64,000 bases of DNA from Escherichia phage T2. Below the pieces are notes generated by a model that saw nothing but the letters and a program-made list of their open reading frames with translations, made no database searches and had not been told where the DNA came from. The position numbers were made by a program, and so were the translations under genes. Of this stretch, positions 33,325 to 37,263 are shown piece after piece. The stretch lies in the sequence record NC_054931.1; one strand, given 5' to 3'. The number at the start of each line of letters is the position of its first letter. Positions within the stretch are counted from its first letter, which is position 1.

Positions 33325-33918
33325 TTATTTCAGAGAATTAATATATTCCTGAACATCGGCAGAGGTAGTTTCAACCCCAGAAATATTGCCATTAAAGGTT
33401 TCAACTCGAGCAAGAGTATCTTCAATATCAACCTTAGTCAGTGCTGCAATTTCAACTACATCATCAGCAGTACTAATTCCAAGGGCATTTGCTGCACGAG
33501 TTTCACGGATATATTCCAATTTAACTGCAAGTTCTTGGCGAGCATCATCTAACTCAACTACTTTCTTAGCGATTTCAATTCGCATTTCAGCATAACCATC
33601 AGCTTTAGTAGTCAGCTGTTCAGCTGTTCGACGATATAGCAAACCGAGTTTAGCATGCATTGTTACATCTTGACCTTCGGAAAGAAGCTTGCGAATTTCA
33701 CGCTCTTTTGATTCAGCCTGTTTATTCTTTTCAACAATAAGTTCACGAATACGTTTTTCTTCATTAATAGATTTAACAGAAGCAGTTTTTAGGTCTTTAA
33801 TTTTATCAAGCAGTTTTGCTGCTGCGGCAGTATACTGTTCTTCAACAGATAGATTTTTAGCCATAGCAGAACCAAGTTTAGTGCGAATAAACTCAACAAT
33901 TTTCTTCAGTGTGTTCAT
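33325..33918 (-). CDS. Hypothetical coiled-coil protein (PspA-like character)
   Basis: 197-aa ORF, highly helical/charged. Confidence 0.5.
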
Positions 33919-34207
33919 AGTATTTCCTTAGGTTAATTAAGATTTAAAATCCATGAGAGTATTATACTCCGGATAGTTTGTAAACTATTTCAACATCGCC
34001 TTTTGCTGCTTTATAACCTTCAGCCCAAGATACAACCGAGTTTTTATCTGAAGATTCAAATTCTGGCATTGGGCTTTCGCCAATGTTCACGCAATATGTT
34101 TCTTCATTTTCGTCGAACCAAATAATTAAAGTAGTCATTTATTTCTCCGTTTCTGTATTTGTTTTTGATAAGTCTATAATAACACCGTCCTTGGTGTTTG
34201 TACACAA

Positions 34208-34483
34208 TTATTTCATATTATTGAAATATTCTTCTGCGATTTCGTCGTTATCATGGTAAACTTTAGAAGACAGTTTAACATAACCTTCAGCAGTGAACAT
34301 GTTAATCACGACCTTTACAGTATACCACTGACCATCTTCATTACCCATTACTGCGTAAGTTTCAAACATCGGATGGTCAGGACCGATAACTTTAATATCA
34401 TTCACTGTACGACCGAAATCTTCTGAAACACATTTCATAAAGAAGTTGAACAGTTCACCGTAATTATCCATTTTATTCTCCAA
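34208..34483 (-). CDS. Hypothetical protein
   Basis: 91-aa ORF directly downstream of an early promoter. Confidence 0.5.
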   Translation of the reverse strand: MENKMDNYGELFNFFMKCVSEDFGRTVNDIKVIGPDHPMFETYAVMGNEDGQWYTVKVVINMFTAEGYVKLSSKVYHDNDEIAEEYFNNMK

Positions 34484-34509
34484 GTTGTTTTCTGTATCAG
34501 TAGTTGATA

Positions 34510-34544
34510 GTTGTATAGTACCATGGAAGAACAGGGATGTAAAC
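34510..34544 (-). promoter_or_regulatory. T4-type early promoter
   Basis: Forward tgtaaac at 34538-34544, -10 atagta at 34515-34520; upstream ttgtgaaaaaattttt. Confidence 0.6.
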
Positions 34545-34599
34545 AGTTTTGTGAAAAAATTTTTAAAAAGTTTTAGGGAATTCTAGGGCGGGGAGGGGC

Positions 34600-34900
34600 A
34601 ATTAAAAGATAGGATAATATATTATAAAGGGTATAAACTAAATGATGCCTAGAGAGGTCTGGAAAGGCCTAGATACCAAAAAGCCCCAACCTTTCGGTCG
34701 GGGCTAAGCCTTGCGGCAACCTTGTCGGGGTTCCACCTGCTAAGGCAAGTGTTTGTACGAAACGCCGGGATTTGAACCCGGTTATTAAGTAGTTGACGCT
34801 ACTCAATATTTTTAAAAGGCCATATCTCGACCATATCCGAACGTTCCGTCAAAAACGCTACTCGGCTTACAGCAAAGATATTTCCTCGAATCGATAATTC
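34600..34900 (-). ncRNA. Candidate structured stable RNA region next to the tRNA cluster
   Basis: No convincing ORF; GC-rich hairpins (gccccaacctttcggtcggggc) and a tRNA T-arm-like element (accgggttcaaatcccggc on the minus strand). Confidence 0.25.
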
Positions 34901-35011
34901 GGTGCGCCGTTTCTGCTGTGATAGTAAAGAGCCAGAACACAGTAAAACTGTGGGAGGAACTATACTCCAGGGAACATCAGTCCGACGACTTACCGGTAGC
35001 GACCCGGTTTC

Positions 35012-35362
35012 TTAATATTCTTTTAAAGCATCAATCTGTTCACGGCGTTTACGCCATAAATCAATTGCTTCATACGCGGATTCAGCATTTCGAATTAGCC
35101 GGCATTTATGTAAAGACTTGTGATTTTGGTATTGTGTAGATAATGGAATTTTATCTAAAAGGTCTTTACGTTCAAAGTATTCGTAACCATCTAAACCAAA
35201 TGAACGATTTTTGAGAAATTGCCAATGCCTAAATTCGTTTTCGACATAAACATAGTCTGCATGCTGATAAAGCAAATTAATTACACGTTCAGAAATAACA
35301 GTGTCATTATGATTAAAATAGAATGTTAAATCATGAACGACTAAATAAACATTACCTTTCAT
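35012..35362 (-). CDS. Hypothetical protein within the tRNA region
   Basis: 116-aa ORF. Confidence 0.45.
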   Translation of the reverse strand: MKGNVYLVVHDLTFYFNHNDTVISERVINLLYQHADYVYVENEFRHWQFLKNRSFGLDGYEYFERKDLLDKIPLSTQYQNHKSLHKCRLIRNAESAYEAIDLWRKRREQIDALKEY

Positions 35363-35380
35363 ATTTTCCTCACTTATAAT

Positions 35381-35456
35381 TGGTCGAGGCAGTAGGGATC
35401 GAACCTACGACCCAGGACTTAGAAGGTCCTTGCTCTTCCTTCTGAGCTATGCCTCG
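35381..35456 (-). tRNA. tRNA-Arg (anticodon UCU)
   Basis: Manual fold: 7-bp acceptor stem, T-arm GGTTCGATCC, anticodon loop CTTCTAA, encoded CCA. Confidence 0.75.
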
Positions 35457-35460
35457 TATT

Positions 35461-35535
35461 TGGCGGACGTGATAGGATTCGAACCTATAACCAATCGCTT
35501 AACAGGCGATCGCTCTGCCATTGAGCTACACATCC
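35461..35535 (-). tRNA. tRNA-Asn (anticodon GUU)
   Basis: Manual fold: acceptor GGATGTG/CACGTCC, anticodon loop CTGTTAA, T-arm GGTTCGAATCC, encoded CCA. Confidence 0.65.
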
Positions 35536-35539
35536 AAAT

Positions 35540-35626
35540 TGGTGGGGAGTGATGGAGTCGAACCACCCGAGTCGCAATGACAATGAATTTACAGTCCACA
35601 CCGCTACCTCTACGGGATAACTCCCC
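35540..35626 (-). tRNA. tRNA-Tyr (anticodon GUA), long variable arm
   Basis: Manual fold of 87 nt: acceptor GGGGAGT/ACTCCCC, anticodon loop CTGTAAA, variable-arm hairpin, T-arm GGTTCGACTCC, CCA. Confidence 0.55.
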
Positions 35627-35636
35627 CAAATTAATT

Positions 35637-35711
35637 TGGTGGCCCTGGGTGGAATTGAACCACCATCTGGCGATTATGAGTCGCTTGCTTGAACCTTCCA
35701 GCTACAGGGCC
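35637..35711 (-). tRNA. tRNA with CAU anticodon (Met or lysidine-type Ile)
   Basis: Manual fold: acceptor GGCCCTG/CAGGGCC, anticodon loop CTCATAA, T-loop GTTCAAT, CCA. Confidence 0.65.
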
Positions 35712-35719
35712 AAATTTTC

Positions 35720-36124
35720 TTATTTTATGTAATATTTATTTAAAAACTTTCTAGCTTGAGTATGGCTAACATTTATAGCGTTTGCATAATTTTTAATAAA
35801 ACCTCGTTCATCCATATTAAAATTTTCTAATATTTTTAATCGTCTAGTTATCTCATCTTTGCTTAAGGTACTTGCATTATTTTTAGAAATTTTTTCTAAG
35901 GACTGTGCCGAGTGTTTTCGACCATTAAAATTAAAATTTTTAGATTTTGGAGGAAATCTATCATTTAGTCTCGCATCTTTTGTATTTTGATTATTAGTTG
36001 CGCAATATATGTTATTTAATGAATATGGTCCTTTATCACCGAAACGGCACATGCAGTATTCATGACCCTTTCTTCCACGCTTATCATATTTTCCCGTTGA
36101 TTTCCACCAATAGCCATTCATCAA
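35720..36124 (-). CDS. Small HNH-like endonuclease-like protein inside the tRNA cluster
   Basis: 134-aa basic ORF with Cys/His/Asn motif (HEYCMCRFGDKGPYSLNNIYCATNNQN); sits between the two tRNA sub-clusters. Confidence 0.4.
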   Translation of the reverse strand: MMNGYWWKSTGKYDKRGRKGHEYCMCRFGDKGPYSLNNIYCATNNQNTKDARLNDRFPPKSKNFNFNGRKHSAQSLEKISKNNASTLSKDEITRRLKILENFNMDERGFIKNYANAINVSHTQARKFLNKYYIK

Positions 36125-36245
36125 AAGTTAAATTCCATTCAATGTTTCTACGTATAGCAGAATTCCGCTGAGAAATATTTTGCATAATCTTCTTTCATCA
36201 CAAATTTCTCTACTTATTCAATACACCGAGCTAAATCAGCAAAAC

Positions 36246-36335
36246 TGGCGGAGGCGATAGGATTTGAACCTATGAGTCGCCGGAGCGACTGCCGGTTTTC
36301 AAGACCGGTGCATTAAACCACTCTGCCACGCCTCC
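36246..36335 (-). tRNA. tRNA-Ser (anticodon UGA)
   Basis: Minus-strand GGAGGCGTGGCAGAGTGGTTTAATGCACCGGTCTTGAAAACCGG...; long variable arm; encoded CCA. Confidence 0.85.
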
Positions 36336-36337
36336 AG

Positions 36338-36411
36338 TCTCCATACAAGGATTTGAACCTTGGACCTCCTGATCCCAAATCAGGCGCTCTACCAAACTGA
36401 GCTACACGGAG
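36338..36411 (-). tRNA. tRNA-Pro (anticodon UGG), no encoded CCA
   Basis: Manual fold: anticodon loop TTTGGGA, T-arm CAAGGTTCAAATCCTTG; 3' end abuts tRNA-Ser. Confidence 0.7.
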
Positions 36412-36421
36412 TAAATTAAAT

Positions 36422-36495
<74 letters not shown>

Positions 36496-36500
36496 AAATT

Positions 36501-36589
36501 TGGTGCGAGAAGTGGGACTCGAACCCACAAGGAAATCATTCCGCAGCATTTTAAGTGCTGTGCCTTTACCAATTTGACCATTCTCGCGC
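36501..36589 (-). tRNA. tRNA-Leu (anticodon UAA)
   Basis: Minus-strand GCGAGAATGGTCAAATTGGTAAAGGCACAGCACTTAAAATGCTG...GGTTCGAGTCCCACTTCTCGCACCA. Confidence 0.85.
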
Positions 36590-36661
36590 TGGGAATAAAG
36601 GACTCGAACCTTTGCATCTAGCAGTCAAAGTTCTATGCCTTACCAACTTGGCTAATTCCCA
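36590..36661 (-). tRNA. tRNA-Gln (anticodon UUG)
   Basis: Minus-strand TGGGAATTAGCCAAGTTGGTAAGGCATAGAACTTTGACTGCTAGATGCAAAGGTTCGAGTCCTTTATTCCCA. Confidence 0.8.
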
Positions 36662-36747
36662 ATTATTAACAAAGGCTCTCAAATAAGAACCCTTGATGAT
36701 AGAGGGTATTAATCAATGCGATATGAGTTAATAATAACAAATATTTC

Positions 36748-37263
36748 TTAAAGCAAATCAACCATTTTAACAGTCGGCAAAACAATTTCTTCTTCGATAT
36801 AAGCAAATTCTACATGTTCAACTACACGCAAGAAATCATATTCATAGTATTCAGAAGCATGACCAAGAATATCAATGAGGCCTTCAAATATCTTATTACC
36901 ATTCACAAAGAATAAGTCAAATACACGTTCTTCATCTTCTTCGGATTTATTACCAAGGTCAACTTCTATATCAAAGACCTTTTTAATGAATTCTGGATAA
37001 AGTTGGTCTGAGAACAGTCCTTCAACCAAATATTCATATATAAAAAGCTCTTGCTCGCTGAACAACCCATTACCACAATAACGGTCAGCTTTAGTGCTAG
37101 AATGACGACTCTTAAACTTCTTCAAAAGATATTTAAATTGTTGGAGCTCATGCTCTTCTACGCCAAACAGTGTTTTGGTTTTATAGTTATCACCATCATT
37201 TTCCCAGGTAGTGACATCAATTACGTAACCCTTAGGAATTGTGCTGCCTAAACGAATATACAT
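36748..37263 (-). CDS. Hypothetical acidic protein
   Basis: 171-aa ORF. Confidence 0.55.
   Translation of the reverse strand: MYIRLGSTIPKGYVIDVTTWENDGDNYKTKTLFGVEEHELQQFKYLLKKFKSRHSSTKADRYCGNGLFSEQELFIYEYLVEGLFSDQLYPEFIKKVFDIEVDLGNKSEEDEERVFDLFFVNGNKIFEGLIDILGHASEYYEYDFLRVVEHVEFAYIEEEIVLPTVKMVDLL

Follow-up and report, generated by a model that had tools for sequence, protein, structure and literature searches.

The segment beside the tRNA cluster of Escherichia phage T2 very probably (about 95%) consists of the T2 gene rnaD, then rnaC, a 3′ trailer, and the intrinsic terminator of the T-even tRNA operon. Both are genes already known in T2, and the rnaC and rnaD genes of T-even phages have been recognized since the 1970s. 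Species 1 RNA of T4, T2, and T6 was reportedly sequenced directly in 1975, the work on the T2 species I RNA being credited to Paddock and Abelson. A map of the T2L tRNA region in a 2008 paper on SegB contains the species I and species II genes, four extra tRNAs, and two ORFs (PMC2330249). A 2022 omics study places rnaC and rnaD among the late RNAs, with a northern assay using an RNAC probe in support (PMC9697503). The roles of both RNAs are given as unknown (PMC3014915, PMC9697503), and a literature search covering reviews and omics papers to 2025 found no paper that assigns a function to rnaC or rnaD.

Neither RNA has an Rfam family, and as a consequence the region is left blank or filled with spurious CDSs in hundreds of T4-like genomes, T2 included. 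Comparison of the relatives gives a testable picture, made up of a fold for rnaC, a loop–loop complementarity within that fold, the separate occurrence of rnaC and rnaD, and a cassette-like tip of rnaD.

Position in the tRNA operon and orthology with T4

The window analyzed is a stretch of 64,000 nucleotides of T2 DNA. A 451-base query covering the segment is 100% identical to the Escherichia phage T2 record PV958097.1, and a related stretch occurs in 807 phage records, which are T4-like nearly throughout. ARAGORN calls nine tRNA genes (Gln, Leu, Gly, Pro, Ser, Met, Tyr, Asn, and Arg; 36661..35381), all of them on the minus strand. This strand is therefore the one to read in the segment, which lies downstream of tRNA-Arg on it. 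The gene order in T2 is the tRNA cluster, tRNA-Arg, an intervening ORF, rnaD, rnaC, the terminator, and e.8 (Table 1).

Table 1. Features of the T2 rnaD–rnaC segment, with positions in the 64,000-nt window
Feature	Position	Strand	Basis or remark
rnaD (species 2 RNA) orthologue, 116 nt	34901..35016	minus	Ends transferred from the T4T annotation through the T2/T4T alignment
rnaD hairpin P1, stem ACCGG/CCGGU, invariant heptaloop GUCGCUA	34992..35008	minus	Folds and covariation
rnaD distal hairpin at the rod tip, hypervariable, "T2-type"	34923..34967	minus	Alignments and folds
Spacer between rnaD and rnaC, 6 nt, GAAUUA	34895..34900	minus	T4T annotation and T2/T4T alignment
rnaC (species 1 RNA) orthologue, 139 nt	34756..34894	minus	Ends transferred from the T4T annotation; covarying fold
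rnaC acceptor-like stem, 7 positions	34764..34758 with 34893..34887	minus	3′ strand directly follows the T arm
rnaC long arm, 70 nt, in the D-arm position	34817..34886	minus	Basal helices: 6 covarying pairs
Apical hexaloop of the long arm, UUGACG	34852..34847	minus	
rnaC 10-bp hairpin	34783..34808	minus	8/10 stem pairs with compensatory changes
Hexaloop of the 10-bp hairpin, CGUCAA	34798..34793	minus	
rnaC T arm, CCGGG-UUCAAAU-CCCGG	34765..34781	minus	T stem: 2 pairs with compensatory changes
3′ trailer, 50 nt, small hairpins, conserved	34706..34755	minus	T4 annotation: absent from mature rnaC
Intrinsic terminator of the tRNA/stable-RNA unit	34676..34705	minus	10-bp stem, GAAA loop, U run
Spacer and sigma-70-like promoter of the next gene	34515..34675	minus	Outside the RNAs
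Sigma-70-like promoter	34543..34515	minus	Reads into the e.8 homologue
e.8 homologue, next gene	34483..34208	minus	ORF list

In the T4T record (HM137666.1), two misc_RNA features, rnaD ("small, stable RNA; species 2 RNA", 119 nt) and rnaC ("species 1 RNA", 139 nt), are placed between tRNA-Arg and gene e.8. The T2 genes are the same genes, colinear with those of T4T in order, strand, and flanks, which bears out the suggestion of a preliminary description, made from the letters alone, that the segment may be the counterpart of the two small stable RNAs of T4. That description had proposed alignment with the T4 stable-RNA genes as a check, and the alignment gives orthology to both. For rnaC, 136 of 139 positions are identical between T2 and T4 in an ungapped pairwise alignment. 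For rnaD, 98 positions are identical (116 nt in T2, 119 nt in T4), and nearly all differences fall in the tip. Positions 6-49 of the rnaD 5′ core are identical, the differences being the first few leader bases; of the final 24 nt, which make up the 3′ core, the last 22 are identical; and the central ~45 nt of T2 cannot be aligned with T4, whose tip is of another sequence type. Assignment of rnaC to species 1 RNA draws on its full-length homology, its operon-distal position, and its shared secondary structure, and assignment of rnaD to species 2 RNA draws on homology with T4 and on the same architecture, which is found despite the divergence of the tip.

Two differences from T4 concern the ends of rnaD. 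The T4 gene encodes a 3′ end of ...CACCA, whereas that of T2 encodes ...CACCG. In T4, tRNA-Arg abuts rnaD, whereas in T2 an ORF of 116 aa separates the two, so the 5′ end of T2 rnaD may arise differently than in T4. This ORF (35012-35362, minus strand; phrog_3355) occupies the same place between tRNA-Arg and rnaD in Mosigvirus, gave no match in a search of Pfam, and probably corresponds to one of the two ORFs mapped in T2L (PMC2330249). Its TAA stop codon (35014..35012) overlaps the rnaD 5′ leader. A second ORF, of 134 aa (35720-36124, minus strand; phrog_16521), lies between tRNA-Ser and tRNA-Met, at the site that holds tRNA-Thr, tRNA-Ile, and the homing endonuclease gene segB in T4; a Pfam match was likewise sought for it and none was found. 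As a point of annotation, the tRNA-Arg of the T4T record is entered with 51 nt (2420-2470 of the retrieved stretch), and the full tRNA reaches the CCA that abuts rnaD.

The extent first assigned to the segment, 34560-35010, was right in that RNA genes lie there, but the genes themselves (35016..34756) begin a few bases outside it, and 34560..34675 is only spacer. Likewise, a promoter-like site does lie beside the segment where an early promoter had been placed (34510-34544), but it lies downstream of both RNAs and is directed into the next gene, away from them, and is therefore not what drives them. The terminator that precedes it is kept in T4, as judged from the T2/T4T alignment, and is formed by a stem-loop at 34705..34682 with the U run after it.

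The spacer that follows the terminator has features of its own. Between the terminator and the e.8 promoter, the plus strand carries G tracts of GGG, GGG, GGGG, and GGGG within 23 bases (34576-34598), nearly the same in T4, and a G-quadruplex might arise from them on the template strand. In many T4-like phages, the rnaC terminator is separated from the e.8 promoter region by 560-690 bp of extra sequence, and matches to the T2 segment are split in two. Several of these longer relatives carry TATAAATA, a late-promoter-like motif, directly after the rnaC terminator. From these alignments, the junction after the terminator (~34675) appears to be a hotspot for modular insertion.

An alternative to RNA genes is that the segment encodes short proteins, as entered in PV958097.1, where three "hypothetical protein" CDSs (CDS0044, CDS0045, and CDS0046) cover rnaD, rnaC, and the spacer. 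The minus-strand ORFs called as CDSs in T2, 34812..34940 (CDS0044, 42 aa) and 34669..34806 (CDS0045, 45 aa), do exist, and "hypothetical protein" calls occur at this place in many related records as well as in PV958097. The coding reading is nonetheless almost certainly wrong. The 42-aa frame has an internal stop and lacks a start codon in T4, and its GTG start in T2 lies within the T2-specific tip. The 45-aa frame contains stops in many relatives and is impossible where a tRNA follows rnaC. Moreover, the substitutions compensate RNA pairing rather than being synonymous. The earlier statement that 34560-35010 holds no convincing ORF is thus upheld, the longest being 45 aa and the frames being broken in relatives.

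Predicted folds of rnaC and rnaD

The fold of rnaC was examined in 18 distinct sequences from seven Tevenvirinae genera (Tequatrovirus, Mosigvirus, Gaprivervirus, Moonvirus, Karamvirus, Kanagawavirus, and Tegunavirus) with RNAalifold and explicit pair counting. The consensus comprises 48 pairs. Paired cells amount to 94.9%, compared with 36-43% in slid controls, and 18 pairs are compensated by double changes, compared with 1-4 in the controls. The folding energy of the 139-nt RNA is −47.3 kcal/mol (z = −4.6), a value that 1 of 200 shuffled sequences matched. The covariation strongly supports a predicted tRNA-like four-way junction for rnaC, in which an acceptor-like stem, a T arm, a 10-bp hairpin, and a long arm come together.

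Each part of the predicted junction carries its own record of substitution. The T stem has 5 bp, and the T loop reads UUCRAAU across the homologues. The third pair of the acceptor-like stem changes from A-U to G-C in 9 of the 18 sequences, and a tandem U.U at the center of this stem is replaced by Watson–Crick pairs only in Tegunavirus. The apex of the long arm, ~35 nt, is invariant across genera. Readings of this apex as a K-turn, as a loop-E/sarcin–ricin motif, or as a Ro-binding element were checked by eye and set aside, the consensus features being absent.

The T-arm-like element noticed before (ACCGGGTTCAAATCCCGGC, minus strand, 34782..34764) is present, and the report that it could not be extended into a canonical cloverleaf agrees with the searches, in which the element gave no tRNA or tmRNA in ARAGORN and no Rfam match at E ≤ 10. 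A cmscan of positions 33900-37000 against 4227 Rfam models at E ≤ 10 placed no family on rnaC or rnaD, and within 34676-35016 the sole match at that threshold was isrK on the opposite strand (16 bits, E = 2.8). The structure and covariance check that had been suggested for the segment thus yields covariation-supported folds for both rnaC and rnaD and no matching Rfam family.

Compared with canonical tRNA (RF00005), rnaC has in common an acceptor-like stem of 7 bp that runs on directly into a T stem of 5 bp, the UUCRAAU loop, the four-way junction, and the position and spacing of the gene within the cluster. Unlike canonical tRNA, it carries a 70-nt arm in place of the D arm, an arm of 10 bp with a 6-nt loop at the anticodon position, and a tandem U.U in the acceptor, and its CCA is not encoded. 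A cloverleaf, a D arm, and a 7-nt anticodon loop were all absent, and RF00005 gave nothing at E ≤ 10 in 34560-35020. A parallel in design may be drawn with tmRNA and YrlA, in which, as in rnaC, a tRNA-like module, probably concerned with processing and stability, is fused to a functional body that is not tRNA. Against both of these, rnaC displays no sequence or covariance-model similarity, no tag reading frame, and no Ro-binding helix that could be identified. ARAGORN called no tmRNA, no tmRNA-family match overlaps the region, and the weak matches to YrlA (RF02553) fall on real tRNAs (36359-36475 and 35430-35494) instead of on rnaC or rnaD.

For rnaD, comparison of relatives shows a predicted 5′ hairpin, P1, followed by a long irregular rod whose core is almost invariant and whose tip is hypervariable. 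The leader is 8 nt in all folded variants. Over 17 sequences, the pair that closes P1 covaries among A-U, G-C, and G-U, and 5 compensated pairs lie at the foot of the tip hairpin. The tip occurs in at least three unrelated sequence types, and in minimum-free-energy folds of 8 variants, three such types take up the same position. The core helices at the base of the rod are invariant and hence yield no covariation information. The folding energy of rnaD (z = −0.85) is no better than that of shuffled sequence.

The stable hairpins announced in the preliminary description are accordingly of two kinds. For rnaC and for the trailer with the terminator (z = −4.0 against shuffled sequence), stability is borne out by the energy; the energy of rnaD is unexceptional, and its hairpins are backed by covariation instead. 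A terminator-like match on the plus strand at 34992-35008 is the reverse complement of rnaD P1 with a T-rich stretch and was discarded as an independent feature.

Conservation, separate occurrence, and exchange of the rnaD tip

The T2 and Mosigvirus sequences agree to ~98% in rnaC, to 94-100% in the rnaD cores, and to 94-97% in the trailer and terminator, compared with ~77% identity for the adjacent 116-aa ORF. The RNAs are thus far better conserved than the neighboring ORF, which points to strong purifying selection and not to decaying relics of tRNA genes. As to the trailer itself, its identity between T2 and Mosigvirus, Gaprivervirus, and T4 is 94-99%. The intergenus identity of trailer and terminator together (34676-34755, minus strand), 94-99%, is as high as that of the mature RNAs. 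It is possible that the trailer, besides being discarded, contributes to processing or termination.

These figures bear on the other possibility raised in the preliminary description, that the segment represents a degenerate tRNA. On such a reading, rnaC and rnaD would be remnants of the tRNA cluster that are decaying and serve no purpose. The location of rnaC within the cluster, with its tRNA-type acceptor stem and its T arm with a UUCAAAU loop, would suit a relic, as would the failure of ARAGORN and Rfam to recognize it as a tRNA and the lack of rnaC in some genera and of rnaD in others. However, strong purifying selection and the many compensatory changes across the whole of rnaC, 18 pairs being kept in this way, contradict decay, as does the contrast of ~98% identity between genera with ~77% in the ORF next to it. 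The invariant 35-nt apex has no tRNA counterpart, and in T4 a discrete, stable RNAC species builds up (PMC9697503). A degenerate tRNA origin of this kind is therefore highly improbable, and the claim is not retained; rnaC and rnaD are better regarded as maintained RNA genes.

The two genes do not always travel together. In the Dhakaviruses IME540 and C6, rnaD is present and rnaC is missing exactly. In Karamvirus, Kanagawavirus, Moonvirus, and Tegunavirus, rnaC is present and rnaD was not detectable. In these four genera, tRNA genes flank rnaC on both sides at a distance of a few nucleotides, and judging from these arrangements, rnaC is handled by the genome like a tRNA gene. rnaC and rnaD are independent modules, gained or lost separately, which is possibly a new observation. 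A 66-nt element, here described as "mini rnaD-like", is found between tRNA-Arg and rnaD in IME540 (330-470 of the retrieved locus) and in one further Dhakavirus record. It combines a hairpin with a GCCGUCG/CGGCGC stem and a free ACCA 3′ end, and its fold has a z of −3.0.

The tip of rnaD follows a pattern of its own. The T2-type tip is shared by T2 and a Dhakavirus; the T4-type tip by T4, Mosigvirus, and one Gaprivervirus; and a third type by another Gaprivervirus and another Dhakavirus. This mosaic spread of tip types across genera indicates that cassettes are exchanged through the invariant flanks.

A candidate kissing contact and possible functions

The two hexaloops of rnaC, UUGACG on the long arm and CGUCAA on the 10-bp hairpin, are complementary to each other at 6/6 positions in 18/18 distinct homologues. 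Tegunavirus is the only lineage that differs, and its loops read UUGAUG and CAUCAA, a compensatory change from C-G to U-A. The chance of a 6/6 Watson–Crick match between two hexamers of such composition is ~3e-4. One evolutionary event and the invariance elsewhere are suggestive of a kissing contact, for which the hexaloops are candidates. No mention of this contact was found in the literature that could be searched, and the complementarity may be new.

It is proposed, by analogy, that the contact would form either within one molecule, closing a triangular body, or between molecules, linking them hand in hand as in the phi29 pRNA. In the phi29 pRNA, loops join hand in hand, and in rnaC, two loops on separate arms are mutually complementary; the likeness is one of analogy, with no homology. 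T4-type DNA packaging is not known to require an RNA. A pairing between the two RNAs was also considered, with the rnaD loop CGCUAC against GUAGCG in rnaC, and was rejected, since chance would be expected to give a match of 6 nt and the RNAs occur separately.

Taken with the independence of the rnaC and rnaD modules and the exchangeable tip, a kissing contact would point to these RNAs being host-specific decoys or scaffolds, a reading that is possible if rather doubtful. If true, it would supply the first concrete structural handles for testing a function that has been unknown for 50 years.

Several searches were directed at relatives and targets. A blastn search of rnaD and rnaC against 5,426 E. 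coli genomes returned no match, and thus no long look-alike or target in the host. When 185,579 bacterial and archaeal genomes were scanned with a pattern describing the invariant rnaC apex, there were 0 matches, so the apex module is phage-specific. Relaxed pattern scans of IMG/VR and JGI metagenomes recovered only Tevenvirinae-type contigs and three obvious chance matches; neither a more remote member of the family nor another loop variant turned up in these collections. In the rest of the 64-kb window, the longest exact complementary or repeated words were 11-12 nt, which is the chance level.

These results weigh on the idea that rnaC and rnaD act in trans as base-pairing sRNAs, each using a short seed against phage or host mRNAs, an idea compatible with their identity. 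The RNAs are stable, abundant, and late-accumulating (PMC9697503), the rnaD tip varies in a cassette-like manner as a targeting module might, and rnaC has an A/U-rich single-stranded linker. Yet most conserved nucleotides lie inside helices or in mutually pairing loops and do not form an open seed. Complementarity above chance is found neither among long exact words in the window nor by blastn against E. coli genomes, and a 2010 review states that no trans-acting T4 sRNA had been characterized. Regulation by base pairing is accordingly unlikely.

The proposal put forward in its place, which is itself tentative and more doubtful than not, is that rnaC and rnaD are structured protein-binding or decoy RNAs, and not base-pairing regulators, whose benefit depends on the host. 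It is favored because the conserved nucleotides lie in helices and mutually pairing loops, because no antisense target appeared in the window or in E. coli genomes, and because the tip varies as in an arms race. Both RNAs are probably cut from the long tRNA-operon transcript by the host nucleases of tRNA maturation. The acceptor/T-arm minihelix of rnaC would then serve as a handle for RNase P and as a stabilizing, protective end. Under the protein-binding or decoy proposal, the working part would be the invariant body, namely the rnaC apex with its loop–loop contact and the rnaD core. An advantage in particular hosts might come from contact with a factor, of the host or of the phage, that acts on tRNA-like RNA.

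The tRNA region of T4 is dispensable in laboratory hosts, and any function of rnaC and rnaD is therefore conditional. The mosaic sharing of rnaD tip types across genera speaks for a host-dependent role. A 2025 evolution study, in which a T4-like phage adapted to a semi-permissive host, described a convergent SNP in its rnaD homologue (PMC12685909), a hint that the RNAs may matter for host range.
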